Assembly (NCBI GenBank): GCA_035548815.1
Contig: DASZSF010000005.1
Coordinates: forward strand, 115,741-179,740
Reading direction: 5' to 3'
Length of the DNA: 64,000 nucleotides
DNA from: Minisyncoccota bacterium
GTDB lineage: Bacteria > Patescibacteriota > Minisyncoccia > Phycocordibacterales > SBAW01
Shown: in pieces, positions 920 through 40,428 of the stretch
How the letters are laid out: each line of letters starts with the position of its first letter
Numbering within the stretch: the stretch's first letter is position 1
Notes under the pieces: model-generated
The model's database searches: none
Told to the model about the DNA's origin: nothing
Seen by the model: only the letters and a program-made list of their open reading frames with translations
Position numbers and translations under genes: made by a program

Positions 920-3900
920 ATGTTGTGGTTGTGGAACTTCTTCCTTGAACGTAAACAGTTCAGCTATGTGCTCATAGCGACGCTTGTTATCGCCGGTTTT
1001 TATGCGCTCGCAAAAATTCCAAAAGAAAATGCGCCGTCCATCATCATTCCAAACGGCATTGTAACCGCGGCACTTCCGGGCGCATCTGCTGAAGATATTG
1101 AGCGGCTTGTCACTAACAAGCTCGAAGACCAGATCTCGGGGCTTTCTAACCTAGACACAATTTCCTCAAACTCAAGCGATGGCGTCGCTGTAATAAACGT
1201 GCAGTTTAGCGCATCTGCTGATGTAACCCAGTCCATACAGGACTTGCGTGACGCTGTTGCTAAAGCCGTGCCGAACTTGCCGTCTGATGCGACAACGCCG
1301 CAGGTGAGCAAGGTAGACATTACCAATCAGCCCATTCTTGTTATTTCTATTTCTGGCGACCTGCCGCTGCCAGCATTTTCAGCACTTGGGACAGAAGTAT
1401 CCGATGAGTTGAAAGGCATTCCAGGAGTGTCTGAAGTTGATGTTGCTGGTGTGCCCGACCGCGAAGTTGATGTCATCGTCAGCAAAGAAAAACTCGAGCA
1501 GTACGGCTTGCGTTTGGTGGACATCATCGGCGCTATCTCTTCTGCAAACGCTGCGGCGCCTGCAGGCAGCATTTCGATAAACGGCGTTAACTATACGGTC
1601 AACTTTAAAGGCGGGATTGAAGATCCATCCGAGATCCAAAACATCGCGGTCGGCACCAAAACAGGCGTTCCCATTTATGTGCGTGATATTGCGGTTGTGT
1701 CCGACGGGTTAGCGCCTGCCCGAACATATTCGCGCCTTTCGCTTGCTGGAAAACCGAGCAATCAGGCAATGACGCTCATGGTCTTCAAACAATCTGGAGC
1801 AAGTGTGCAGGGAGTTGCGGATGCGTCAAAGAAAAAAATTGATGAGCTCAAAGCAACATCGCTCAAAGGGCTTGATGTGTTCATTTCGCCCTCAACAGAC
1901 CAGGGCGTGCAGGTTTCAAAACAATTAGGCGACTTGGCTGAAACAGGGCTTGAGACTGTCGTGCTCGTGCTCATTGTGTTGCTTGTAACTATCGGGTGGC
2001 GCGAGTCGGTCGTAGCCGGGCTCGCGATTCCGCTGTCGTTCCTCATCGCTTTCATCGGGCTCTACCTTACAGGCAATACGCTCAACTTTATCTCGCTCTT
2101 CGCGCTCATTTTGGCCGTGGGCATCTTGGTCGACTCAGGAATCGTTGTGACAGAGGCCATCCATGCGCGCCGGCCGCTTCATAAAGACTCTATGGATGCT
2201 GCACGCGCGGCGCTTCGCGACTACGCATGGCCGCTCATTGCAGGCACCATGGCAACAGTGGCTGTGTTCGCGCCGCTCTTCTTTATTTCCGGCATCGTCG
2301 GCAAATTCATTGCTGGCATTCCTTACACGCTCATCTTCGTGCTCTTGGCATCCATCTTCGTAGCGCTCGGCATTGTGCCAATAATCGCAGTGCTCTTTTC
2401 GTCGAGCCAGAAGCGAAATCGTCTGGAGGAAGCACAGGAACGATACACGGAAACTGCAACGCATTGGTACAAAGCAAAGCTGCGCACCATATTGGAAAGC
2501 GCTCGCGCACAGCGTCTCTTTTTGCGCGGCTTGGCTATCCTTTTCGTGCTTTCGCTCGCGCTGCCGTTTACGGGTCTTGTACAGACAACATTTTTCCCGC
2601 AGGATGACCAGGACTTCGTCTATATAAATATTCAAAAGCCGGAAGGCACGACGCTCTCACAGACAGACCTTGCGGTGCGTGAAGTTGAAGAGATCTTGTA
2701 CAAGAACCCTGACATCTCGTCGTTTGAAGCAACCGTAGGACAGAGCTCGGGGCTCACCGGTGCAGGCTCCTCGGGCAGCAATCAAGCGAACATTACCGTC
2801 AACCTGCCGCTTGGCCACAAAAAAACAAGCACTGAAATTTCAAATGAGCTGACAGGGCAGCTCGCGGTCGTGACCGATGCCACCGTGCAGGTGCTTCAGG
2901 CAAACAACGGTCCGTCGTCAGGCGCTCCAGTACAGATCCAGTTCAAGGGAGAAAATCTCGATGATTTAATAGTCGCGGCACAAGCAGGGAAGCGTATGCT
3001 TTCGACCATACCTCACGTGCAGAACATTACTGATACAACGCAGAACAACGGCACTGCGTTCGACCTGACAATAGACCGCGGCAAAGCAACAGCGCTTGGC
3101 CTTTCAACACAAATGGTCGCGCAGACATTGCGCGCGGCAATTCAAGGCACCAAGGCAACGAGCATTACACAGCCGCAAAAAGACATCGACGTCATTGTAA
3201 AGCTCAACCTGAACACTAACTACACCGACCCGTCGGACACATCCCGCACAACAATTGATGCAATAAAGAATCTTTCTATCCAAGGGAACAACGGCCCAGT
3301 GCTTTTGGGTTCTGTGTTGGCCGACACCTTGGGTCAAAGCAACGCAGCAATAGCACATAAAGATAAAGTCCGTATTGAAACAGTATCTGCATATCCTGAC
3401 GACAAGACGACAGCGACTGCGGTTGTTTCCGAATTCCAGAAACGAGAGAGCGAACTCAACCTTCCGCCGGGTGTTACTGTTTCGTACGGTGGTGAAACTG
3501 AAGACGTGAATCAGTCGTTCACCGAAATGTTCATCGCGCTCATTGCGGGGCTCGTGCTGATGTTCATGATTCTCATCATTTCGTTCAACTCTATCCGCCA
3601 CACGCTGCAGCTTTTGCTCATCGTACCGCTGTCGCTCATCGGCGTGCTTGATGGTTTGGCGCTCACCGGCCAGCCAGTGTCGTTTACTTCACTTCTTGGC
3701 ATCATCGCGCTTGGCGGCGTCATCATCAACCACGCCATCATCCTTATGGATTCGATGATCCATCAGTTGCATACGTACCCAGAGAAGTCCCTTGTCGATA
3801 TTGTCGTTGACTCATCCGCAACGCGTTTGCGCCCGATCGTGCTCACAACTATCACGACCGTTGTCGGTATGATTCCACTCGCGCTTTCAAACGCAACCTG

Positions 3901-4030
3901 GGGCCCGCTTGCGTATGCCGTCATGTTCGGCCTGGCCTTCGCTATCTGCCTGACGCTTGTGCTCGTGCCCGTACTCTTCTTCCGCTACTGGACCAACATC
4001 CGCGCGAAAAACGTGGCGGCTTCACGCTAG
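920..4030 (+). CDS. RND family efflux transporter permease (AcrB/HAE1-like), 1036 aa, 12 TM
   Basis: N-terminus FFLERKQFSYVLIATLVIAGFYAL..., two large periplasmic loops, paired TM bundles; length and motif layout typical of AcrB family; 7 nt after adaptor gene. Confidence 0.9.
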   Translation: MLWLWNFFLERKQFSYVLIATLVIAGFYALAKIPKENAPSIIIPNGIVTAALPGASAEDIERLVTNKLEDQISGLSNLDTISSNSSDGVAVINVQFSASADVTQSIQDLRDAVAKAVPNLPSDATTPQVSKVDITNQPILVISISGDLPLPAFSALGTEVSDELKGIPGVSEVDVAGVPDREVDVIVSKEKLEQYGLRLVDIIGAISSANAAAPAGSISINGVNYTVNFKGGIEDPSEIQNIAVGTKTGVPIYVRDIAVVSDGLAPARTYSRLSLAGKPSNQAMTLMVFKQSGASVQGVADASKKKIDELKATSLKGLDVFISPSTDQGVQVSKQLGDLAETGLETVVLVLIVLLVTIGWRESVVAGLAIPLSFLIAFIGLYLTGNTLNFISLFALILAVGILVDSGIVVTEAIHARRPLHKDSMDAARAALRDYAWPLIAGTMATVAVFAPLFFISGIVGKFIAGIPYTLIFVLLASIFVALGIVPIIAVLFSSSQKRNRLEEAQERYTETATHWYKAKLRTILESARAQRLFLRGLAILFVLSLALPFTGLVQTTFFPQDDQDFVYINIQKPEGTTLSQTDLAVREVEEILYKNPDISSFEATVGQSSGLTGAGSSGSNQANITVNLPLGHKKTSTEISNELTGQLAVVTDATVQVLQANNGPSSGAPVQIQFKGENLDDLIVAAQAGKRMLSTIPHVQNITDTTQNNGTAFDLTIDRGKATALGLSTQMVAQTLRAAIQGTKATSITQPQKDIDVIVKLNLNTNYTDPSDTSRTTIDAIKNLSIQGNNGPVLLGSVLADTLGQSNAAIAHKDKVRIETVSAYPDDKTTATAVVSEFQKRESELNLPPGVTVSYGGETEDVNQSFTEMFIALIAGLVLMFMILIISFNSIRHTLQLLLIVPLSLIGVLDGLALTGQPVSFTSLLGIIALGGVIINHAIILMDSMIHQLHTYPEKSLVDIVVDSSATRLRPIVLTTITTVVGMIPLALSNATWGPLAYAVMFGLAFAICLTLVLVPVLFFRYWTNIRAKNVAASR

Positions 4031-4072
4031 TGTTGATGACATTTGCGTGAAGGCTCCTATACTAGAAGCAGG

Positions 4073-4672
4073 ATGAATAAGCTACTTGGTATAGCATTAT
4101 TTTTTCTTGCACTTGTGAGTGTGCCTCATCTGTTGAGCGCTGATGATCCTATTCCCACTATTCCCAATGCCGGTACTATTACCGGAACACGTATTGCAAC
4201 GACAACTGCAGCAGTGCAGTCCAAAGCAGAAGTGAAAGCGCCACTTGTGCCGGTGCGCGTGCGCATTCCGGCAATTAAGCTCAACGATAGAATTGTCCCC
4301 GTTGGCAAGACAAAAGACGGCGCCATGGATGTGCCTTCGGGCAACACGAGCGATATTGGGTGGTACAAATATGGCACCACCCCGGGTGACGTGGGCAGTG
4401 CCGTATTTGATGCGCATGTCTTTGCCGCCTTGGCGAATCTCTACAAGCTCAAAGCCGGGGATGACATATACGTCATGATGTCCGACGGCACCGAGCGGCA
4501 CTTTGTCGTTGAGAAAAGTGTCGTCTACAAACTAGCCGACGTGCCTGCGGCAAAACTTTTTGCGCGCGATGACACAGAGCGTTTGAATTTGATTACCTGT
4601 GAGGGCAAGCTTACGCGCGATCATTCAACCTACGACCATCGTCGTGTGGTATACGCAACGCTCGTCCACTAA
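4073..4672 (+). CDS. sortase family transpeptidase
   Basis: N-terminal TM anchor MNKLLGIALFFLALVSV, catalytic-region motifs HV(F)... LNLITCEG ... R; C-terminal TLVH; class typical of small sortases. Confidence 0.8.
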   Translation: MNKLLGIALFFLALVSVPHLLSADDPIPTIPNAGTITGTRIATTTAAVQSKAEVKAPLVPVRVRIPAIKLNDRIVPVGKTKDGAMDVPSGNTSDIGWYKYGTTPGDVGSAVFDAHVFAALANLYKLKAGDDIYVMMSDGTERHFVVEKSVVYKLADVPAAKLFARDDTERLNLITCEGKLTRDHSTYDHRRVVYATLVH

Positions 4673-5753: not shown

Positions 5754-6005
5754 ATGGAAAACAACAATAATAATCGAAGTGGTCGCGGTTTTGCAGGTAT
5801 GGATCCGGACAAGCAGCGCGAAATTGCAAGCAAAGGCGGCAAAGCCGCACATGAAAAGGGCACAGCGCACGAGTTTGACTCGCAAGAGGCAGCAGAAGCG
5901 GGCGCAAAGGGAGGAAAAGCATCTCACTCAAACGATTCCAACCACAACGGTTCTAACCGTAACCAGGAACGCGACGAGGATGGACGCTTCATGGATGATG
6001 ATTAA
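5754..6005 (+). CDS. KGG-repeat general stress protein (YciG/Con-10 family)
   Basis: repeats SKGGKAAHEKG / GAKGGKASH, Asn/Asp-rich, no TM; start MENNNNN inside ORF 5712..6005. Confidence 0.6.
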   Translation: MENNNNNRSGRGFAGMDPDKQREIASKGGKAAHEKGTAHEFDSQEAAEAGAKGGKASHSNDSNHNGSNRNQERDEDGRFMDDD

Positions 6006-6081
6006 GACGTTTGAGATTAGGAAACCTGACACAAAACGCCCCATTCGGGGCGTTTTGTAGTATAGTTGATACGGTTTTTCT

Positions 6082-7206
6082 ATGGCAAAAAAAAGCACAA
6101 GCGTCCGCCTAATTGTTATCACGGGCTTAGTTGCGTGCGCTGCAGTCGTGTTGTGTGCTGGGCTTGTATATGCAGGCGGCTACAGCATATTGTTTGCTGT
6201 TCGCTATGGTGGTGCGGGCGATGCAGAAGCGTCGAGCACGCCAACGAACGTTGCTGTCGTGCCAACGCTCGACACGCATGCATATGATGTAAAACTTCTT
6301 CAGCTTGCACATGTCGCAACTTCGTCGCCGTGGTACGAATATTTTTTGACTGGTACTACGACTGCGACAACAACCCTAAAAAAATCTTTGTGGCCGGTTA
6401 AAACGACCTACCCAAACTACGGCGCACTGCTGCCGAACAACCGCATCGTCGCCTACTACGGCAACTTCTACTCCAAAGGCATGGGCGTCTTGGGCGAATA
6501 CCCAGAAGATGTGATGTTGCAGAAATTGAAAGACACGGTTGCGCAATGGCAAGCGGCTGACCCGTCGACTCCTGTTATTCCAGCCATCGACTACATCGAT
6601 GTTACAGCGCAGGGGAGTGCGGGGAAGGACGGCAAGTACCGTTTGCGCATGCCGGACTCACAAATTGATAAAGCGCTGGACCTTGCAAGCAAAGTAAATG
6701 GCATCGTGATTTTGGATATACAGGTGGGCTTGAGCAATTTGCAGTCCGAACTCCCACTTATTGAAAAATACTTGGCAATGCCGAATGTACATTTGGCTAT
6801 CGATCCTGAATTTGCCATGCACAATGACACGCCGCCGGGGCGTGTCATTGGCACGATGAGCTCGGCTGATGTGAACTACGCGGCGAACTTCTTGGCAGAT
6901 TTGGTGAAGAGAAATAATCTCCCGCCAAAGATACTCATCGTCCACCGCTTTACCGAAGAAATGGTAACAGGGTATCAAAACATCAAGCCGTTGTCTGAGG
7001 TACAGATCGTCATGGACATGGACGGCTGGGGCTTTGCCGCAAAGAAAATAAATACTTACAACTCTGTTGTGTATTCAGAGCCCGTGCAGTTTACAGGGTT
7101 CAAGCTCTTCTATAAGAACGACTTGAAGCCTCCAAGCACGGCGATGATGACACCCGAACAAGTGTTGAAGCTCACGCCAGCCCCATCGTTTATCCAATAT
7201 CAATAA
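6082..7206 (+). CDS. hypothetical membrane-anchored exported protein (possible TIM-barrel glycoside-hydrolase-like fold)
   Basis: N-terminal TM (LIVITGLVACAAVVLCAGLVYA), 374 aa, no confident family assignment. Confidence 0.5.
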   Translation: MAKKSTSVRLIVITGLVACAAVVLCAGLVYAGGYSILFAVRYGGAGDAEASSTPTNVAVVPTLDTHAYDVKLLQLAHVATSSPWYEYFLTGTTTATTTLKKSLWPVKTTYPNYGALLPNNRIVAYYGNFYSKGMGVLGEYPEDVMLQKLKDTVAQWQAADPSTPVIPAIDYIDVTAQGSAGKDGKYRLRMPDSQIDKALDLASKVNGIVILDIQVGLSNLQSELPLIEKYLAMPNVHLAIDPEFAMHNDTPPGRVIGTMSSADVNYAANFLADLVKRNNLPPKILIVHRFTEEMVTGYQNIKPLSEVQIVMDMDGWGFAAKKINTYNSVVYSEPVQFTGFKLFYKNDLKPPSTAMMTPEQVLKLTPAPSFIQYQ

Positions 7207-31475: not shown

Positions 31476-32003
31476 CTACGACTGCACGTAGCGGAGTGCG
31501 GGGAAGAACGGTTTCATGTCGACCCAGGTGAAGAGGCCGCATGTCAGAAAACGCCGCAGTGTCTTCCCGATGCTAGGAAAGCCTTTGGCGTTGACGCTGT
31601 CGGCTATGAACCAACAAATGCTGACGCCTTCCTTGTGCTGCTCCCACAACGGGCGCAGGTAGCGATGATCAGCGCCAACCATCACTATCCGGCCAACCTT
31701 TGACCGATCCACGGCGTCAATTCTCCTGCATAAATGATGATCATCCTCTTCGCTCAAGGTCCCGGAAGGGATAACCTCAAACCCCTTCTTTCTAAATGCT
31801 TCGCCAATCGGGTTATCGGCCAAATGTGGAAGCATAGTTATGACCGGCGGCAATAGGCGTTTTGACTGAGTTTTGGTATGCAAAAGCGTATAGAGGACGG
31901 CTGCGTCGATTTGGGTTATGCCGTGTTGGGCTGCACATTTGTGCAGAGACGCGCCATCAATGAGCGCGAGGGTTTTACGATCGTCCATAGTCTTGCTCCC
32001 CAT
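31476..32003 (-). CDS. NYN-domain (LabA/DUF88-like) putative nuclease
   Basis: LALIDGASLH ... RIVMVGADHRYLRPL acidic-residue pattern of NYN/PIN-like fold. Confidence 0.6.
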   Translation of the reverse strand: MGSKTMDDRKTLALIDGASLHKCAAQHGITQIDAAVLYTLLHTKTQSKRLLPPVITMLPHLADNPIGEAFRKKGFEVIPSGTLSEEDDHHLCRRIDAVDRSKVGRIVMVGADHRYLRPLWEQHKEGVSICWFIADSVNAKGFPSIGKTLRRFLTCGLFTWVDMKPFFPALRYVQS

Positions 32004-32141: not shown

Positions 32142-32229
32142 GGAGGCGTCGCATAGTGGTCTAGTGCACACGCTTGGAAAGCGTGCAACCCGCAAGGGTT
32201 CGAGAGTTCGAATCTCTCCGCCTCCGCCA
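32142..32229 (+). tRNA. tRNA-Ser(GGA): tRNA-Ser (anticodon GGA), type II with long variable arm, CCA encoded
   Basis: acceptor GGAGGCG/CGCCTCC, anticodon arm CACGC-TTGGAAA-GCGTG, variable arm AACCC-GCAA-GGGTT, T-arm GAGAG-TTCGAAT-CTCTC, G73, CCA. Confidence 0.88.
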
Positions 32230-32292
32230 GAAGGTTTTAGTATCGGAGGTATGCGAGAGCATACCTCTTTAGAGTACTGCGAAGGCTTACCA

Positions 32293-32322
32293 TTGAACTT
32301 CTAATGTCTTCCACACTATAAT
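32293..32322 (+). promoter_or_regulatory. sigma70-like promoter for DUF4238 gene (leaderless-type spacing)
   Basis: -35 TTGAAC (32293-98), 18-bp spacer, -10 TATAAT (32317-22) 6 nt before GTG start at 32329. Confidence 0.4.
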
Positions 32323-32328
32323 CACGGC

Positions 32329-33297
32329 GTGGCTAAGAAGAATAAAAAGAAAAACAAAGGGCCGCGCGACCAGCATTTTGTCCCGCGTTGTTATCTATCT
32401 GAATTCACCGATCCCAACACCCCTTTAGGCCAAGAGCCTTACGTGTGGGTGTTCGACAAGGACGGCAAGAATCCGCGTAAGCGGGCTCCTAAAAACGTAT
32501 TTACCGAGACCCATTTATATACCTTCGAGTTCAATGGTGAAAAGGATTTCTCCATGGAACAAAGTCTCTCTACTATCGAGGCCAAGTACGCATATATCTT
32601 TAGGCATAAAATCAAACAAAAGAAGCCTCTGACCGAAACGGAACACGCCTACCTATGTGCGTTCGTCGCGGCTCAGATGGTCCGTACGCCGCGCTTTAAG
32701 GAGAACCAAGAGAACTTCATCCAGCAGCTCATCGACCATGGCACTCAGATGGCGCTCGCGCACGGCGTAACCAATTCGCCGCAGGTGCGCCAGTGGCGGG
32801 AGTACAAAAAGGACGCACACAAGATCCAAATGGTGGATAGCATCCCGTACATCGCGAACATACTGCTGCAAATGAGCGTGGCATTTCTCTGCATCAAAGG
32901 TCCGAGCAAACACTGGTTCATTACTTCGGACGACCCTTGCGTATTTTTCAATCCGGATCTTCAATGGCAGCGGTTTTATGGCCCCGGCTTCGGTCAACAA
33001 AACGTGCAGCTCACACTCGCACTCAGTCCGGAGGTAACAGTGATGTTTACGTGGGCGAACTTTCGCGGCTACTCGTATGTGAGCGGCGGCAACGTCGAGA
33101 GTATGCTCAACCGTATGACACGCTTTCACTCAAACAAAGAATTTATATCTCCATACCCCAAGAAAAAGTGGGTCTGGTTTAGTCGCGTGCCGCTCGACCC
33201 GTTCTTCCTCTGGAAGGTAGTGAAGAATGAGACGAAAATACGGCTTCACAAGCTCCGCAACCGATGGCGCTACCGCAAAATGTATGCCAAACGATAA
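32329..33297 (+). CDS. DUF4238-family protein (Rst_DUF4238-type anti-phage defence candidate), GTG start
   Basis: N-terminal HFVPRCYLSEF matches DUF4238 signature; Lys-rich N-tail. Confidence 0.7.
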   Translation: MAKKNKKKNKGPRDQHFVPRCYLSEFTDPNTPLGQEPYVWVFDKDGKNPRKRAPKNVFTETHLYTFEFNGEKDFSMEQSLSTIEAKYAYIFRHKIKQKKPLTETEHAYLCAFVAAQMVRTPRFKENQENFIQQLIDHGTQMALAHGVTNSPQVRQWREYKKDAHKIQMVDSIPYIANILLQMSVAFLCIKGPSKHWFITSDDPCVFFNPDLQWQRFYGPGFGQQNVQLTLALSPEVTVMFTWANFRGYSYVSGGNVESMLNRMTRFHSNKEFISPYPKKKWVWFSRVPLDPFFLWKVVKNETKIRLHKLRNRWRYRKMYAKR

Positions 33298-34171
33298 CAT
33301 CGAACAAAATATAAAAGATATTGTCGAGTCTGGCGCGACCCCAGATGAGAAGATCTCCTCGCTTAACGACCTGATTGCGGGACTCAGCTTTGTGCATCAG
33401 GTCGCAGAAGCTCGACGTGTCGCGGAAGCAGGTGCGCTTATTGCTGCAAAGGCTGGTAAGACGGAAATGGCAGCACAATTTTGCTTTATGCGTGCAAAGG
33501 CGGAGATTGCAGAAGCAGGCAAATTCATCGGCGAGATGAAAAACATTACTATGGCGATCAACTGGTTCGAGTTCGGGCTTGAGGCAGAGAAAAAACGATT
33601 TAAAGAACTTGATGCAAAACTGCAAACCAACTGGGGCATCACTCAAAAGGTTATGAATATGGGGTATGATTTTATCAATAAAAAACCCTACATTGGCGCT
33701 GGTGCTTATTGCCAGCGAACCGCCGGACAGATATATGGCACTTATTACCTCCAGCTAAAGCTACACTATTTCACAACCGGTCATCCGTGGCGCGCGCGTT
33801 TCGGGAATTATGCGCTGTCTCGTTGGGTCGGCATAGATGACTTGTTCATTCTCAGTAAGAAATCTCGCGCTCACCTGCGAAGTGTTAAACGAGACTGTCT
33901 CAAGTCTCTCCATCAAGCAAAGCGTCTGTTTAAACAAATAAAAGCATATGATTACCTTGTTGAGACATACTTTGACCTCGCGCTGGAACACCATTCATTC
34001 AATGACTCTCTCCGCAGTAAGTTTTATCTCTGGTGGGGATGGTTGTTAATGAAATGGCACCGACTTCAGGAGCCACGCCTCGCAGAAAGCTTCGCGTCAC
34101 TTCGCGAATTGCCACTCATCGGAAGCAATCGTGACGGCAGACCTATGGATGAGCTGCAACCGCAGCTGTAA
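33284..34171 (+). CDS. hypothetical alpha-helical protein translationally coupled to DUF4238 gene
   Basis: ATG 33284 overlaps upstream stop by 14 nt; 295 aa, no recognisable domain. Confidence 0.5.
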   Translation: MPNDNIEQNIKDIVESGATPDEKISSLNDLIAGLSFVHQVAEARRVAEAGALIAAKAGKTEMAAQFCFMRAKAEIAEAGKFIGEMKNITMAINWFEFGLEAEKKRFKELDAKLQTNWGITQKVMNMGYDFINKKPYIGAGAYCQRTAGQIYGTYYLQLKLHYFTTGHPWRARFGNYALSRWVGIDDLFILSKKSRAHLRSVKRDCLKSLHQAKRLFKQIKAYDYLVETYFDLALEHHSFNDSLRSKFYLWWGWLLMKWHRLQEPRLAESFASLRELPLIGSNRDGRPMDELQPQL

Positions 34172-34175
34172 TCTT

Positions 34176-35543
34176 CTAATTGTCTTGGTCTATCGTCACA
34201 ATTCCTTTTGTGATTTTGAGCTTTGATTTGAAACATCCCATCAACTCGCGCTTCTCCTGGTCCGTCCCTTCCTTCAGCGTGTACTTCGCATAGGTTTTGA
34301 GATCTACTTCGTCGTGCGTTTTTGAGGCGCTGGACATACCCAACACTGCTCGTTGGAATTTGTTAAAGCGCTTTAGCTCTTCCTCAAACTTGTGCTGAAT
34401 GCCGATGCCATTGAGGTCGATTTGGTCGAGTGCTTTTATCATCTGGTCGATTAGTTCCTCCTCGCGCAGGTAGGTATTCTTGCAGTGCAGATTACGCGCT
34501 CGCCCGCAGCCGTAATAGATATACTTTCGCATCGTACCGTCTTTGAGCTGTTTGTACTTTTCCTCCGCGCTGAACATTGATCCGCACAGTCCGCAGGTGA
34601 CGAGCTTGGTAAACGCGAACTCGTGGCTTTGGCGCACAATGCTATCGCGCTTGAGTTGGGCCTGCACCGCATCAAAGAGTTCTTTGGTGATGAGCGGCTC
34701 GTGCTTGCCCTGATACCAATTGCCGGAGTTTTTCGGGTACTCGAACGTGCCGTAATAGAAATGATTGGTGAGCGTGCGATATACGTTGCCGCAGGTAAGC
34801 GGCTTGTTGCCGGTTGTATGAAAGTTTAAGTCGAACCTAAGCCAGTGGTAGACGCGACGGCCCGACCACTTTTCGTAAGCAACCTTCTCAAACATTTTCT
34901 TGATAACTGGTCCTCGCTCCGGATCGACAATCACCTGACATTTTTTGTCCATCATTTTTTGTGTCAGATATCCAGTGGGCGGCGTAGTTGGCCACAAGCC
35001 CATTTCGACCCTCGTTCGCAAACCGCGCTTAACATTGATTCCACGATTATCGTTTTCGAGCTTCGCTTGTGACCCGAGAATCATCAACAGGAACTTCTCG
35101 TTCGGGTTATTGCGGAAGCTCTGGCTGTATGTCCGAATTTCCTGCAAGCCTCCGGAGTCCATCAAATCCACGACCTTGCCGAGGTCGCCTGCGTTGCGCG
35201 AAATTCTATCAGCTGCCCATGTCAAAATTCCGTTGTATTTGCCAGCTTTGATCTCCTCGATAACTTCATTGAAGACTGGTCGCTGACCCGTCTCTTTTGC
35301 AGAGTGCGATTCGCGCTTCATCGCGACCACCTCTAGGCCTTCTCGCTCGGAGAGCTGTAGCATTTCCTTTATCTGCGAATCAATCGAAAGCACCTGTCGC
35401 TCTTCCGATTCGGTGCTCTTTCTCGCATAGAGGCAATACCTCACTTTTACCGCCTCTGGTACGACCTGTTTGCCAATAATACCCACGGCCCTTGTTGTAG
35501 TTTCCATACCCCAAGGGATGACGCTGACGCCTATGGGAGTCAA
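34176..35543 (-). CDS. large serine recombinase (resolvase/integrase family with recombinase domain and zinc ribbon)
   Basis: catalytic region YARKSTESEERQVLSIDSQ, ...RISRN; C-terminal CGLCGS...YYGCGRARNLHC. Confidence 0.85.
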   Translation of the reverse strand: MTPIGVSVIPWGMETTTRAVGIIGKQVVPEAVKVRYCLYARKSTESEERQVLSIDSQIKEMLQLSEREGLEVVAMKRESHSAKETGQRPVFNEVIEEIKAGKYNGILTWAADRISRNAGDLGKVVDLMDSGGLQEIRTYSQSFRNNPNEKFLLMILGSQAKLENDNRGINVKRGLRTRVEMGLWPTTPPTGYLTQKMMDKKCQVIVDPERGPVIKKMFEKVAYEKWSGRRVYHWLRFDLNFHTTGNKPLTCGNVYRTLTNHFYYGTFEYPKNSGNWYQGKHEPLITKELFDAVQAQLKRDSIVRQSHEFAFTKLVTCGLCGSMFSAEEKYKQLKDGTMRKYIYYGCGRARNLHCKNTYLREEELIDQMIKALDQIDLNGIGIQHKFEEELKRFNKFQRAVLGMSSASKTHDEVDLKTYAKYTLKEGTDQEKRELMGCFKSKLKITKGIVTIDQDN

Positions 35544-35595
35544 GAGCGTCCCCAGAACCTAGCTGTTGGTAACTTAAACAAGCTGGAGCCTATAT

Positions 35596-36123
35596 TTAAA
35601 GATTCTTCAATATAAAATCTGCCCGCTCTTCCGGCGGCAGTACAGGCACGTGTACAACCGGTGATGGCAGTGATTCATAAACTTCAGTAATGAAGTCGTG
35701 GATTTGCTTCTGTGCGGCCGCGTCTTCGGTGCGGGCGTAGTCATTCACTAGCGGCAATGGATCTAAAATGAAAACCTTTTTATATGATGCCTTCCTCATC
35801 GCCAACAGGATTTTGCCGTCTTCGGGGAGATTAGTAAATCGATAATATGCTAAAGCGTCAGGGATTGCCCGATCAAGAAAAACGACTTCGTTCGGTGAAA
35901 GTTCCCGCTCTTGTGCGATCTGCATACCAAGCACACCTTGCTGAAAAGCCAGCTGGTTTTGCCTAATCTCTTCTACAGTTTTACCCGTGATTCGTTGTGT
36001 ATCAATAAAATGCCGTGCATGCTCAATCGTGGTCTTGTAGCCACGTTCTTTGAGAAGGTTTACCGTAGTTGTCTTACCGGAGCCCGGGCCTCCAGTTATT
36101 ACGTACCAGTTCGTTGCGTCCAT
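35596..36123 (-). CDS. P-loop NTPase / predicted kinase (AAA_28/NadR-like)
   Basis: Walker A ITGGPGSGKTT, Walker B VVFLD. Confidence 0.55.
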   Translation of the reverse strand: MDATNWYVITGGPGSGKTTTVNLLKERGYKTTIEHARHFIDTQRITGKTVEEIRQNQLAFQQGVLGMQIAQERELSPNEVVFLDRAIPDALAYYRFTNLPEDGKILLAMRKASYKKVFILDPLPLVNDYARTEDAAAQKQIHDFITEVYESLPSPVVHVPVLPPEERADFILKNL

Positions 36124-36392
36124 TAGCCGATTTTATGTGATCCACTCCAGTTATAGCAATGCGCGAAGCAATATCCCAATACAAAACCAAAAATGACACT
36201 GGCAATAATGCCTTCAACCCACGCCTGTACTGAACCAAGAGGGGCGGCCGTGAACAGAGCGAGCCACATATGTGTGAACTGTGCCCCAGGCAAAATAATC
36301 TGTGCAATGGCACATAGTACGAACGCGACAACCAAGGTGCCAGCGAGTGCGATACCAGTCCGAACCGTCGACAATCGAGTAATGTTTTCCAT
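36123..36392 (-). CDS. small 2-TM membrane protein
   Basis: 89 aa hydrophobic; start overlaps kinase. Confidence 0.4.
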   Translation of the reverse strand: MENITRLSTVRTGIALAGTLVVAFVLCAIAQIILPGAQFTHMWLALFTAAPLGSVQAWVEGIIASVIFGFVLGYCFAHCYNWSGSHKIG

Positions 36393-36424
36393 AAAATTTA
36401 TTAATTTCTAAATAATGTCGGCAA

Positions 36425-36553
36425 CTACTTCTTAGAAATCTGCTGCCAGAGCCAGATTCCCACTAGCACTAGATCAACGAGGACAACAATCCACGTGAGT
36501 AGGCCGAAGACACCTGCGCCGCCCATCATCCCCTCATATCCATAACCCATCAT
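36425..36553 (-). CDS. tiny glycine-zipper membrane peptide (42 aa), below ORF-track cutoff
   Basis: MMGYGYEGMMGGAGVFGLLTWIVVLVDLVLVGIWLWQQISKK read from minus strand. Confidence 0.25.
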   Translation of the reverse strand: MMGYGYEGMMGGAGVFGLLTWIVVLVDLVLVGIWLWQQISKK

Positions 36554-36624
36554 AATATGTAATTGTTATTTTTTTAATAATCTCGACCTAAGCACATGGT
36601 ACCGCTGACGGCCACTTTACACAA

Positions 36625-36641
36625 ATACCCCATGGGGGTAT
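36625..36641. promoter_or_regulatory. CsoR operator (GC-rich pseudo-palindrome) 10 nt upstream of csoR
   Basis: ATACCCC-ATG-GGGGTAT near-perfect inverted repeat, resembling known CsoR operators (TACCC...GGGTA). Confidence 0.6.
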
Positions 36642-36650
36642 CATAAGGTC

Positions 36651-36923
36651 ATGAAAGTAGACGCGAAAAGAAAGGTACTCCGTCGCCTCAGTCTAATCCG
36701 GGGCCAACTCAACGGCCTTATCAAAATGGTAGATGCTGAACGCTACTGCGTCGACATCATTACGCAATCGAGCGCGATTAAGGAGGCACTTTCAGGAGTG
36801 GAAGACGTCATGCTCGAAAACCATCTCACGACGCACGTTATAGACCAGATCAAATCAGGGAGGAGTAAGAAGGCGGTCGAAGAGATATTGAAAGTTTATA
36901 AGTTAGCACAAAAGAAAAAGTGA
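36651..36923 (+). CDS. csoR: copper-sensing repressor CsoR (CsoR/RcnR DUF156 family)
   Basis: VLRRLSLIRGQLNGLIKMVDAERYCVDIITQSSAIKEAL...HLTTH; conserved Cys and His ligands. Confidence 0.85.
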   Translation: MKVDAKRKVLRRLSLIRGQLNGLIKMVDAERYCVDIITQSSAIKEALSGVEDVMLENHLTTHVIDQIKSGRSKKAVEEILKVYKLAQKKK

Positions 36924-36924
36924 T

Positions 36925-37131
36925 ATGAAAAATACCACCGTGCGTTGGGTAATTATTGGTCTACTTATAGTCGCAGGAGTTTATCTCGCTGTTGACCACG
37001 GTCAGCATATTGCGCCCTATTTGCCATTTGCTTTTTTGTCAGGCTGCCTTTTTATGCACCTGTTCGGCCACGGAGCACATGGTCATCATGGGAACCATGG
37101 CGGGCATGAGCATGAAGACGCAAAACAATGA
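36925..37131 (+). CDS. DUF2933-like small membrane protein with His-rich tail (metal-resistance associated)
   Basis: TM then CLFMHLFGHGAHGHHGNHGGHEHED. Confidence 0.5.
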   Translation: MKNTTVRWVIIGLLIVAGVYLAVDHGQHIAPYLPFAFLSGCLFMHLFGHGAHGHHGNHGGHEHEDAKQ

Positions 37132-37967
37132 AAAATATTTTAATCACCAAAGCATCTGGCGAACGTGAGGCATTTTCGGAGTCGAAATTGCGCCGCTCTC
37201 TACAGCGCGTGCACGCACCTTCAAATCTTGTAGACGAAATCGTCGCCCAGATCGAGACTGAATTGAGCGAAGGTATGAATACGTCGGAGATATATCGGAA
37301 AGCGTTTTCTCTGCTCAGGAAAAAAGCGAGACCTGTCGCGGCACGCTACAGTCTTAGAAGCGCACTAATGGAATTGGGACCGACCGGCAGGCCATTCGAG
37401 CGCTTTGTGGGTGAGCTTTTGAAGTCGGAGGGATTTGCCGTAGAAGTAGCGAAGATTGTGCCAGGAGTCTGCATCAAGCATGAAGTTGATGTCGTCGGCA
37501 CCAAAGGAGATCGACATATTATGGTGGAATGCAAATTTCATAATCAACCCGGATTGCGATCGGACGTAAAAATATCGCTCTATGTACAGGCTCGATTTGA
37601 GGATATCGAGCGCCAATGGAAGAAACAACTGCATCACGGAGAGAAATTCCACGAAGTATGGCTTGTCACTAATACGAAACTTACTTCTGATGCCACTGAT
37701 TATGCGAAATGCGTCGGGATGCATGCTATTGGCTGGAATTATCCTGCCACTGGCAGCTTGGAAGAGCTAATTGAGCAGCATAATCTCCATCCTTTGACAT
37801 GTCTAACGCGTCTGAATCGTTTACAGAAACAAGAACTTTTAAAACAAGGGCTCATTCTTTGCACTGATCTCCTAGAGGAACGAGACACTTTGCAGAAAAT
37901 TGTTGGAACTTCCGTGCGTGTAGATGAAATAGTGCAAGAGGTAAAGAAGCTACTAAAAATCGTATGA
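37128..37967 (+). CDS. ATP-cone domain fused to Mrr-like (restriction endonuclease-fold) nuclease domain
   Basis: N-terminal KASGEREAFSESKLRRSLQRV (ATP-cone); central ERFVGELLKSEGFAVEVAKIVPG...HEVDVVGTKGDRHIMVECKFH (Mrr_cat D-x-E-x-K). Confidence 0.65.
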   Translation: MKNILITKASGEREAFSESKLRRSLQRVHAPSNLVDEIVAQIETELSEGMNTSEIYRKAFSLLRKKARPVAARYSLRSALMELGPTGRPFERFVGELLKSEGFAVEVAKIVPGVCIKHEVDVVGTKGDRHIMVECKFHNQPGLRSDVKISLYVQARFEDIERQWKKQLHHGEKFHEVWLVTNTKLTSDATDYAKCVGMHAIGWNYPATGSLEELIEQHNLHPLTCLTRLNRLQKQELLKQGLILCTDLLEERDTLQKIVGTSVRVDEIVQEVKKLLKIV

Positions 37968-38215
37968 AAGAATTAGAACGCCGATCCTTCAATAATTTCA
38001 TGCAGGCGGGGCTCGTTGGATTTACGATGCTCGGCTTCTTACTTACGTCGCTTAAGATGCCCCAATATGGCGTCGTTGCGAATTTAATCTCAGAAGTCTT
38101 CTGGCTATACAGCACGTACAAGGCGTGGAAAGAAGCAAATCAGGTTGGCATGTTTATAAACACCCTGATTGTGACGGCAATCCTCATTTTTGGAGTTATC
38201 AACTATTGGCTCTAG
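37964..38215 (+). CDS. small 2-TM membrane protein
   Basis: 83 aa, overlaps neighbours by 4 nt. Confidence 0.4.
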   Translation: MKELERRSFNNFMQAGLVGFTMLGFLLTSLKMPQYGVVANLISEVFWLYSTYKAWKEANQVGMFINTLIVTAILIFGVINYWL

Positions 38216-38226
38216 CAATATAAATT

Positions 38227-40428
38227 ATGAATCACGACGACCACAAAAATCACAAACACAGAGCCCATGGCATGGAGCAATACACCTGCCCGATGCATCC
38301 TGAAGTAATAAAACATGAGCCGGGCAAATGTCCGGGATGCGGCAAGGATTTGATTCCCAAGGAAAAGGGGGTAGGCGGTGAACATGCCGGGCACGATATG
38401 TCGAAAATGAGCCACATGGATCACGAGGCAGCGATGACGAACCCACAGATGGCGAAGGCAATGGAGGCCGATATGCGCCGCCGGTTCTGGATTTCATTCG
38501 TACTCTCGATACCCATTTTCTTGTATTCGCCCGTCGGCGTGAACCTGTTGAAGCTCCATCTGCCCGCGCCGATACCGGTCAGCTGGATACTCTTCATCCT
38601 CACGACACCGATAGTTTTCTGGACCGGCTCCATATTCATCACGGGCACGTACTACTCGCTCAAAGCCAAGAAGCTCAACATGGCGGTCTTGATCGCGACA
38701 GGCGTCCTTGCCGCGTACCTCTTTAGCGTGCTTCTCACGCTGATACAGCCTGCGAGCGAGACGTTCTACGAAGCCGCCGCGCTTCTTGTCACCTTCGTTC
38801 TTTTTGGGCATTGGATGGAGATGAAATCCCGCAAAGGCACATCGGACTCGCTCCGAGCCCTCTTTGATCTGGTACCGCCTCAGGCCCGAGTCATCCGCGA
38901 CGGAAAAGAGATGAGCATACCGAGCGCGGAAATAATCAAGGGGGACGTCGTCGTGTTGCGTCCTGGCGACAAAGTGCCGGTTGACGGAGAAATCATTGAG
39001 GGTGATTCATCGATCGATGAATCACTTGTGACCGGCGAATCCATCCCTGTCTCGAAGGCGAAAGGAGACAAAATAGTGGGAGGTTCGGTCAACCTCACCG
39101 GCGCGGTGCAATTCAAGGCGACAAAAGTCGGCGCGGATACTGTCTTGGCACAGATCATCAAGATGGTAGAGACTGCACAGAACTCCAAAGCGCCCGGGCA
39201 GCGTATCGCCGACAAGGCTGCCGCCATTCTGGTGGTGGTCGCCATTGGCTCCGGACTTGCCGCATTCTTTGGCTGGTATTTCTTCGGAGGTGCGGGACTT
39301 CTCGCCGCCCTTACCTTTGCCGTATCGACTGTTGTCATTGCATGCCCTGATGCATTAGGGCTCGCGACGCCAACAGCCGTTGCGGTGGGCACCGGCTTGG
39401 GTGCCAAGCACAACATTCTCATCAAAGATGCCGCAACGCTTGAAAATACTTCCAAACTCAATGCTATCGTGCTTGATAAGACAGGTACGCTCACCGAAGG
39501 GAAACCGAAAGTAACCGAGGTTGTTTCCACAAATTCTTATACCAAAGAGGACGTGCTTGCATACGCGTCTGCCGTTGAGCGGAACTCGAATCATCCCATT
39601 AGTCTCGCGATTATCAACGAAGCATCGAAGCGTAGCGTGTCCATCGAGAAGAAAGTCGAGAAATTTGAATCAATCGGCGGTCATGGCGTGCGTGCTGTTG
39701 CCGATGGCAAGACGGTCATTGCGGGCACTGAGCGCTTGATGAAGCAAAGCACTATTGATCTCTCACCACTCAAAAAGGAAATCGACCGTCTGCTTGGCAC
39801 AGGCAACACCATCAGCATCGTCGCGATTGACGGCAAGGTGGCGGGTGCCATCGGCGTCGCAGACACGGTACGTGAATCCGCACAGAAAACAGTATCCAAA
39901 CTAAAAGATATGGGTTTGGAAGTCGTCATGATCACTGGCGATCACGAACAGGTCGCTAAGGCAGTTGCAGGACAGCTTGGGATTGAACGCTACTTCGCAC
40001 AAGTGCTTCCTGAGGAGAAAGCGAAGTACGTGAAGAAGTTGCAAGACGAAGGTAAAAACGTAGCAATGGTCGGTGACGGCATCAACGATGCACCTGCCTT
40101 GGCGCAATCCGATATCGGCATCGCGATTGGTGCAGGCACCGACGTCGCCATCGAGACCGGCAACATCGTCCTGATGAAGTCCGATCCTTACGACATCGTG
40201 GCCGCCATCCGATTGTCTAAAGCAACTGTCACGAAGATGAAACAGAATCTATTTTGGGCTGCTATCTACAATGTTCTCGCAATTCCCGTGGCCGCAGGAG
40301 TTTTCTACTCAAGCTTGGGTTGGTCATTGCGACCTGAAATTTCCGCACTCCTCATGTCCGCTTCCTCAATCATCGTTGCTACAAACGCGGTTCTGCTCAA
40401 ACGGGTGGAGCCGCGCTTGAAGGAATGA
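38227..40428 (+). CDS. copA: heavy-metal (probably copper) P1B-type ATPase; TM6 motif CPD instead of CPC; N-terminal TRASH/YHS-like CPMHP...CPGCG
   Basis: TGES, IACPDALGLATP, DKTGTLT, GDGINDAPAL, 8 TM. Confidence 0.9.
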   Translation: MNHDDHKNHKHRAHGMEQYTCPMHPEVIKHEPGKCPGCGKDLIPKEKGVGGEHAGHDMSKMSHMDHEAAMTNPQMAKAMEADMRRRFWISFVLSIPIFLYSPVGVNLLKLHLPAPIPVSWILFILTTPIVFWTGSIFITGTYYSLKAKKLNMAVLIATGVLAAYLFSVLLTLIQPASETFYEAAALLVTFVLFGHWMEMKSRKGTSDSLRALFDLVPPQARVIRDGKEMSIPSAEIIKGDVVVLRPGDKVPVDGEIIEGDSSIDESLVTGESIPVSKAKGDKIVGGSVNLTGAVQFKATKVGADTVLAQIIKMVETAQNSKAPGQRIADKAAAILVVVAIGSGLAAFFGWYFFGGAGLLAALTFAVSTVVIACPDALGLATPTAVAVGTGLGAKHNILIKDAATLENTSKLNAIVLDKTGTLTEGKPKVTEVVSTNSYTKEDVLAYASAVERNSNHPISLAIINEASKRSVSIEKKVEKFESIGGHGVRAVADGKTVIAGTERLMKQSTIDLSPLKKEIDRLLGTGNTISIVAIDGKVAGAIGVADTVRESAQKTVSKLKDMGLEVVMITGDHEQVAKAVAGQLGIERYFAQVLPEEKAKYVKKLQDEGKNVAMVGDGINDAPALAQSDIGIAIGAGTDVAIETGNIVLMKSDPYDIVAAIRLSKATVTKMKQNLFWAAIYNVLAIPVAAGVFYSSLGWSLRPEISALLMSASSIIVATNAVLLKRVEPRLKE

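Follow-up and report, generated by a model that had tools for sequence, protein, structure and literature searches.

A DUF4238 gene with an overlapping partner: a candidate two-subunit anti-phage module on a small recombinase cassette in Patescibacteria

Is a DUF4238 gene that runs into the next reading frame the single gene that current defense catalogs describe, or one half of a two-gene module? The question was raised by a locus of a Minisyncoccota bacterium (GenBank assembly GCA_035548815.1, contig DASZSF010000005.1, positions 115,741–179,740), from which we analyzed a stretch of 64,000 nucleotides, referred to here as the window. A DUF4238 gene near its middle is followed on the same strand by a partner gene, and a preliminary description of the window had placed the partner's ATG 14 nt inside the DUF4238 coding sequence (stop 33297). 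Direct reading of the sequence confirmed this, with the ATG at 33284–33286. We therefore asked of these two genes how regularly they occur together, what their products resemble, how they travel between genomes, and whether they may form a two-subunit anti-phage module. Coordinates of all window features are collected in Table 1.

A DUF4238 clade with an overlapping partner gene

A pattern-limited scan of 185,579 genomes (one genome per species) with a DUF4238 alignment recovered 55 loci. Four of these encode distant DUF4238 proteins (21%–25% identity to the window protein) and are without the partner. The other 51 encode proteins with at least 38% identity and make up what we call the paired clade: An intact partner open reading frame (ORF) lies directly downstream at 44 loci (232–380 bits on a broad partner profile), the partner runs past the contig end at one (L031; 146 bits), both genes are fragmented at one (L068), and the contig ends before the partner position at five, which were left out of the testable set. 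The partner is directly downstream at 45 of the 46 testable loci, the remaining locus being L068 with its two degraded genes. Where the partner ORF is intact, it overlaps the DUF4238 gene by 8–26 nt at 42 of 44 loci (17 nt at 12 loci, 8 nt at nine, 14 nt at eight, 22 nt at five, 23 nt at three, 20 and 26 nt at two each, and 11 nt at one); only two loci have no overlap.

Neighborhoods were also retrieved from either gene. Six look-ups seeded with partner homologs (P0005, P0009, P0014, P0018, P0025, and P0027) gave loci L001–L013, all of which have a DUF4238 gene encoding 310–328 amino acids (aa) directly 5' of the partner and overlapping it. Seeding with DUF4238 homologs (48%–60% identity) led in three out of three cases to an overlapping downstream gene encoding 282–318 aa. 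The partner of L014 is 41% identical to that of the window, and those of L015 and L017 only ∼22%, yet the latter two score 66 and 41 bits on the partner profile; co-occurrence in distant lineages was covered in the DUF4238-to-partner direction only. Hosts are mostly Patescibacteria but also include Terriglobia/Acidobacteriota, Binatia, Acidimicrobiia (Actinomycetota), Aminicenantes, a Sulfurifustaceae gammaproteobacterium, a deltaproteobacterium, and one Bathyarchaeia archaeon, at least seven phyla in all. The distribution is very patchy, with 51 of the 185,579 species genomes scattered across unrelated phyla. A lineage-specific partner that does not co-occur with DUF4238, the outcome that the preliminary description had named as refuting its proposal, is not what we found: The two are paired at 45 of 46 loci, in at least seven phyla, and in every partner-seeded neighborhood.

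Across loci, the pairwise identity of the DUF4238 protein correlates with that of its partner (Spearman 0.63). Together with the pairing at 45 of 46 loci and the distribution of overlap sizes, this leads us to conclude that in this DUF4238 clade the partner is near-obligate, co-inherited, and translationally overlapping. The partner is the less conserved protein in 99.7% of 903 comparisons (mean identity 27%, versus 49% for DUF4238) and diverges at about twice the DUF4238 rate, a pattern that would fit a rapidly changing subunit for recognition next to an effector under constraint.

As a gene, the partner is genuine and conserved. Its close homologs, recovered by a word-indexed search, form 29 clusters (263–305 aa), the named ones from Patescibacteria, and a profile search against 1.84 billion representatives extended the family to 92 clusters at the 50%-identity level (E ≤ 1e-3), nearly all of 270–330 aa. 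That the partner is a chance or lineage-specific orphan ORF is refuted by these 92 clusters, by a confident predicted fold (see below), and by its place directly after DUF4238 at 45 of 46 loci. The overlap itself might be an annotation artifact, because a second in-frame ATG at 33227, with GGAAGG 9 nt 5' of it, would give a partner of 314 aa and has its counterpart at this position in both L019 and L011. In all 10 loci examined in detail, however, the DUF4238 gene has an ATG 11–20 nt before its end; this internal ATG is the sole start codon of the partner's open frame in five of the 10, and the extensions upstream of it show no conservation at the protein level in these loci. These observations favor 33284 over 33227 as the start. 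The called homologs (263–305 aa) share a common start point, and no consistent Shine–Dalgarno sequence precedes the internal ATG. A start at 33227 would still mean a 71-nt overlap. We regard an orphan or artifactual partner as extremely improbable. The preliminary description had called cotranslation of the two genes almost certain; this comparison, in which the overlapping ATG proves conserved, gives coupled translation good support. The ATG at 33227 was absent from that description, as were the fold and the cassette presented below.

Upstream of the pair, TTGAAC-18 nt-TATAAT is the region's best match to the promoter consensus (10 of 12 positions), although the number of such sites is not above chance. 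A TATAAT-like box lies 6–12 nt 5' of the DUF4238 start in all six aligned Patescibacteria loci (the window, L001, L004, L007, L011, and L019). This short distance suggests that the DUF4238 mRNA may be leaderless or nearly so. The window, L001, and L019 use GTG to start the DUF4238 gene; a leaderless transcript with a GTG start would be unusual.

A known defense domain and a TPR-like partner

The window DUF4238 protein matches Pfam PF14022 with 117.6 bits (cut-off 27; E = 9e-34) over residues 15–239, corresponding to positions 2–236 of the 281-position profile. The (near-)invariant residues include Q15-H16, P19, Y22-L23, R119-T120, H164-K165, S200-D201, P203, N208, W213-Q214, and Y217-G218-P219-G220. 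A structural model built from 121 sequences (predicted local distance difference test [pLDDT] 92, predicted template modeling score [pTM] 0.87) predicts a small N-terminal sheet, a helical bundle, a second sheet, and a long C-terminal helix (residues 291–321). Foldseek returned no solved relative of this fold at E ≤ 1e-3, and a sequence search of the PDB gave nothing (best E 1.1). The protein is basic (median isoelectric point [pI] 9.6), and its last 35 residues have a median net charge of +8 (+10 for the window protein).

One member of the DUF4238 family has a demonstrated activity. A lone DUF4238 protein from a P2-like prophage hotspot gave E. coli strong resistance to T7, and this system, Rst_DUF4238, was described as a single gene, in line with the preliminary description, with its molecular function stated to be unknown (Rousset et al. 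2022; PMC9122126). The later literature that we searched describes neither a partner nor a mechanism. Searching phage genomes with the window protein (tblastn) retrieved gp11 of phage pro483, a representative that is likewise a lone gene, set between a replication gene and a portal gene without a partner neighbor. The two proteins share the Pfam domain, similar lengths (322 aa in the window, 309 aa for gp11), the motifs HF[VL]xxCYL, RTP, FITSD[DN]P, and YxPGFG, and carriage on mobile DNA. They differ in that gp11 reaches 725.5 bits over positions 1–309 of the PADLOC "DUF4238-Pers" model, whereas the window protein falls well short of a full-length, high-scoring match (37 bits, E = 6e-10, best stretch residues 169–256). 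The alignment with gp11 ends at residue 257 of the window protein, which is ∼25 residues longer at the C-terminus; the long basic helix 291–321 lies within the region beyond the alignment. The genomic setting differs as well: Instead of standing singly in a P2-like prophage hotspot, DUF4238 genes of the window clade overlap an obligate partner gene (at 45 of 46 testable loci), and the window locus is flanked by tRNA-Ser, a serine recombinase, and housekeeping genes. Considering the 23% identity to the validated protein, the shared motifs, the 37 bits on the PADLOC model, and the end of the alignment at residue 257, we place the window gene within Pfam DUF4238 and outside the Rst_DUF4238 system as currently defined.

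The partner had been described as lacking any recognizable motif, and indeed neither Pfam, PADLOC, NCBIfam, nor PHROGs gave a match at E ≤ 0.1. It had also been described as helical, rich in W/F/Y, and without a transmembrane segment, all of which holds: The highest 19-residue Kyte–Doolittle mean is 0.8, with no hydrophobic segment, W+F+Y make up 12.2% of residues, and the AlphaFold2 model is all-helical with a confident predicted fold. In this model, pairs of antiparallel helices build the partner into a right-handed solenoid, which can be superposed on known tetratricopeptide repeat (TPR) domains, and we refer to the predicted fold as TPR-like. Tabulated figures of the structural comparison were 15.8 and 15.7 for Pins/LGN, 15.4 for 14-3-3, 12.5 for MalT domain III, about 12 for Rap, 11.7 for PlcR, and 10.7 for the STAND TPR sensor PH0952. 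At the sequence level, no TPR model of Pfam or NCBIfam matches the window partner (E ≤ 0.1), the distant L017 partner has a weak match to LapB (NCBIfam, E = 0.008), and a PDB search found nothing meaningful (best STIM1, E = 0.0076).

TPR-type recognition modules are a known theme, seen in Avs/STAND NTPases with TPR sensor arms, in MalT domain III, and in the RRNPP receptors Rap, PlcR, and AimR. Compared with these, the partner (∼300 aa) stands alone, lacking any NTPase, helix-turn-helix, or enzymatic domain, and the likeness is at the level of fold only and does not imply a ligand. Family-wide, only W94 and F97 (and the initiator Met) are near-invariant, within the motif NL-x-LA-x-x-W-x-x-F-S-L-E-x-D-K. 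A second motif, LEHHSFN, is invariant across the close partner clade, and we entertained a catalytic or metal-site role for it; its absence from the distant partners in L015 and L017 led us to reject it as a family-wide active site. An acidic nucleic-acid mimic or antitoxin was also considered and rejected on the partner's median pI of 9.3. Having no model in Pfam, NCBIfam, PADLOC v2, or PHROGs, the partner family appears to be new within the libraries and literature searched, as does the split of DUF4238 into lone and paired clades.

Other arrangements involving DUF4238 were seen in passing. A second DUF4238 gene lies ∼4 kb from the pair in L007 (10748–12897; = L008 5813–7971), beyond an EcoRI-type methylase gene and a GmrSD/HNH gene. 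It is preceded, with a 4-nt overlap, by a gene for a 557-aa protein without a Pfam or PADLOC match, on which grounds DUF4238 may be paired with other partners in other clades. L072 (106–3653), from a Chthoniobacter metagenome-assembled genome, encodes a distant DUF4238 protein (25% identity) followed 12 nt on by an 845-aa ORF on the same strand and may be another two-gene arrangement.

A serine-recombinase cassette beside tRNA genes

In a subclade of Patescibacteria, a cassette of ∼3.3 kb carries the pair as cargo, together with a large serine recombinase, and lies beside the 3' end of a tRNA gene. In the window this gene is tRNA-Ser(GGA), the sole match in the Rfam search. A tRNA gene lies within 400 nt upstream of the pair in eight of 12 close-clade loci including the window (seven tRNA-Ser with various anticodons and one tRNA-Gln); the distant loci are all without one. 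At L001 and L025 the tRNA gene is missing, but a remnant resembling a tRNA 3' end is retained. L014 (4430–4931; = L030) and L023 (3683–3869) have two or three tandem tRNA-Ser genes directly upstream of the pair, one of them with an unusual predicted anticodon, ACT; such arrays may be copies or partial duplications from repeated cassette insertion. Just past the tRNA end, the motif TTTA[GT]TATCGG recurs in the window, L011, L019, L023, and L025; L001, L004, and L007 have a degenerate version of it. This left-junction motif and its hairpin are possibly the tRNA terminator or part of an attachment site.

The recombinase gene is convergent with the pair, and its product has the domain architecture of a large serine recombinase (Pfam Resolvase, E = 1.8e-18; Recombinase, E = 8.2e-14; Zn_ribbon_recom, E = 1.4e-08). 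Its top NCBIfam matches are CcrB and XisF, far under their cut-offs (112 versus 900 bits). L007/8, L009/10, and L011/12 have orthologs (55%–75% identity) at the corresponding position; further recombinases adjoin the pair in L021–L023, L025, L026, and L061, and in L019 after one extra ORF. That ORF (5853–6560, plus strand; 235 aa) has as its sole match a weak, below-threshold hit to HEPN_LA2681 (E = 0.01) and may be additional cassette cargo. In L004 (6890–6990; = L028), ∼100 nt located after the stop codon of the partner and before a SLAC1 gene, itself unrelated, match the window recombinase gene at its 3' end with 70% identity, likely the relic of a lost recombinase that left the cassette fixed there.

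On the far side, a conserved non-coding block of ∼60 nt, starting directly upstream of the recombinase ATG, holds a GACGC/GCGTC dyad. Across seven aligned cassettes, similarity stops right after GTTGGTAACT at window position 35574, and homology between the window and L011 extends to 35575. L009 (8205–8300) and L010 (5382–5477) are 99% identical up to mid-block and unrelated beyond, both ending in an AGTTGG[TC]AA-like half-site, which looks like the footprint of site-specific recombination. The block is likely a recombination site and/or promoter, with its outer end the probable right edge of the cassette. No empty integration site was recovered (a metagenome search via the flanking AAA_28 gene gave 19 relatives, none syntenic towards the tRNA), so the cassette ends are approximate; nor did we recover an attL/attR pair or a circular form. 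No direct repeats beyond chance flank the cassette. Serine recombinases typically use a short crossover core, with which the missing repeats are consistent.

The pair moves horizontally, and its modules are shuffled. In L019 it is 90% identical to the window at the DNA level over exactly 32328–34171, while the recombinase is just 67% identical, the tRNA gene is tRNA-Ser(TGA) rather than tRNA-Ser(GGA), and the flanks are unrelated. In architecture (Resolvase, Recombinase, Zn-ribbon), the recombinase resembles CcrA/B/C of staphylococcal cassette chromosome (SCC) elements and XisF of the fdxN element, and the cassette shares with these islands the insertion of cargo at a conserved gene's 3' end (in this case that of a tRNA gene) and a conserved site beside the recombinase gene. 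It is far smaller than they are (∼3.3 kb) and has only two cargo genes. As a minimal tRNA-linked serine-recombinase cassette in Patescibacteria, it appears new within the libraries and literature searched.

Carriage on such a cassette, and the occurrence of similar cassettes in unrelated contexts, raise the question of whether the pair is a toxin–antitoxin-like addiction module that stabilizes its carrier cassette or island, with DUF4238 as toxin, the partner as protein antitoxin, and defense absent or incidental. The tight gene overlap and co-inheritance would suit such a module, the overlapping two-gene layout would fit a type II toxin–antitoxin system, and a HipA toxin module adjoins the pair in L017. 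Outside the Patescibacteria subclade, though, most loci carry the pair without a recombinase and have no evident element to stabilize, from which we conclude that the pair is the functional unit and the cassette one vehicle. Also against this reading, the partner (295 aa) is a TPR-like solenoid in which no DNA-binding domain and no labile-antitoxin features were detected, and a related lone DUF4238 is kept in a P2-like phage without an antitoxin and defends against T7 (PMC9122126). On balance, we consider addiction an unlikely role for the pair.

Table 1. Features of the window around the gene pair (positions are those of the 64,000-nt stretch)
Feature	Coordinates	Strand	Remarks
175-aa protein	31476–32003	-	No Pfam match; between GroEL and tRNA; seems unrelated
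tRNA-Ser(GGA)	32142–32229	+	ARAGORN; Rfam tRNA 55.9 bits; directly upstream of the pair; landmark of the cassette left edge
Left-junction motif AGTATCGG and 10-bp hairpin GGAGGTATGC-GAGA-GCATACCTCT	32239–32270 (motif 32239–32246)	+	Hairpin from minimum-free-energy fold
Promoter-like site TTGAAC-18 nt-TATAAT	32293–32322	+	End of -10 box 6 nt before GTG start
DUF4238 gene (ORF1)	32329–33297	+	GTG start, TAA stop at 33295–33297; 322 aa; putative effector; strongly basic C-terminal helix
Partner gene	33284–34171	+	295 aa; TPR-like helical solenoid fold (predicted); putative sensor or regulatory subunit
Large serine recombinase gene	34176–35507	-	Convergent with the pair; conserved ATG at 35507, open frame on to TTG at 35543
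Conserved ∼60-nt block GGGATGACGC ... GGAGTCAAGAGCGTCC ... GTTGGTAACT	35515–35574		Upstream of recombinase ATG 35507
CsoR-like repressor, His-rich small membrane protein, P-type copper ATPase	36123–40428		From translations only; seem unrelated

Genomic neighbors, proposed function, and significance

Among the loci that we inspected individually, neighbors of the pair included ParB-methylase, VRR-NUC, and UvrD; an EcoRI-type methylase, GmrSD/HNH, and a second DUF4238; Fic and a type I restriction–modification system; Shedu SduA_C, Mrr, and LexA; and HipA (L017) and a KAP NTPase. A scan of the two nearest ORFs on each side at 43 loci (134 ORFs) found nine serine recombinases, about nine DNA methylases, four LexA, three UvrD helicases (also matching PADLOC GajB models), two HEPN_AbiU2, and one AccI endonuclease, the rest being housekeeping genes. 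These neighbors fit a mobile or defense context. The four LexA-type repressors (LexA_DNA_bind plus Peptidase_S24), perhaps not all from independent loci, include one in L044, on the same contig as L016, in which the LexA gene is upstream of the pair (3434–4084; likewise placed in L015). They hint at SOS-linked regulation or a prophage-like context.

Housekeeping neighbors at several loci could also indicate a function unrelated to conflict, for example, that of an enzyme that processes or modifies nucleic acids and has an adaptor subunit, merely transferred horizontally. The basic character of both proteins (median pI 9.6 and 9.3) and the lack of a known biochemical function for DUF4238 would suit this. 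Such a function seems rather improbable to us given the very patchy distribution (51 of 185,579 species genomes), the near-identical copies in unrelated contexts, the recurrence of restriction–modification, Abi, and Shedu neighbors, and the anti-phage activity of the sole DUF4238 family member tested (PMC9122126).

We infer instead, with a probability of roughly 0.55, that the pair is a two-subunit anti-phage module, most likely of the abortive-infection type. DUF4238 would most likely be the effector, since it keeps the core motifs of a protein, the validated single-gene Rst_DUF4238, that defends alone. The TPR-like partner would most likely be the recognition or gating subunit, sensing phage or gating the effector, because it is encoded on the same message, evolves about twice as fast, and has a predicted fold typical of peptide- or protein-binding sensors. 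The overlapping start would favor translation of the two proteins in a coupled manner and at a fixed ratio, and the partner may bind DUF4238, possibly via the basic C-terminal helix. The target is probably nucleic acid, as the strongly basic character of both proteins would favor. In Patescibacteria, the large serine recombinase would move the cassette and lodge it beside tRNA 3' ends. The full proposal, in which the pair is an undescribed two-component anti-phage system with a recognition subunit from a new family and forms the sole cargo of the ∼3.3-kb Patescibacteria cassette, is more tentative, and we put it somewhat short of even odds.

Several observations weigh against a role in defense. 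The window DUF4238 protein is just 23% identical to the validated protein and has a weak, partial PADLOC match (37 bits), and because its fold is without a solved relative, no catalytic activity can be assigned to it. The sole pointer to an interaction between DUF4238 and the partner is their gene order. The flanks of the window locus are housekeeping genes (GroES/EL, an AAA_28 kinase-like gene, and a CsoR/copper-ATPase cluster) and not a defense island, and the neighbor counts given above come without a background rate. Finally, a pattern-limited scan of IMG/VR viral contigs found neither gene of this clade, unlike the prophage-borne Rst_DUF4238.

The DUF4238 domain, its role in defense, and TPR-like recognition subunits as a theme were already known. 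The paired clade, with its TPR-like partner, provides a handle on the mechanism of a validated DUF4238 defense protein, and the partner may reveal a regulator or trigger of the DUF4238 effector. The contrast of lone with paired clades offers a natural experiment on how a single-gene system gains a separate sensing subunit. Current defense-finder tools would miss the partner family, with its 92 clusters at 50% identity. Should the pair prove nondefensive, it would still be a widespread mobile two-gene module of unknown function. In Patescibacteria, a small recombinase cassette could explain the exchange of defense genes among reduced genomes and, if the proposal is true, would be among the smallest self-mobilizing defense cassettes, in a group with very small genomes.

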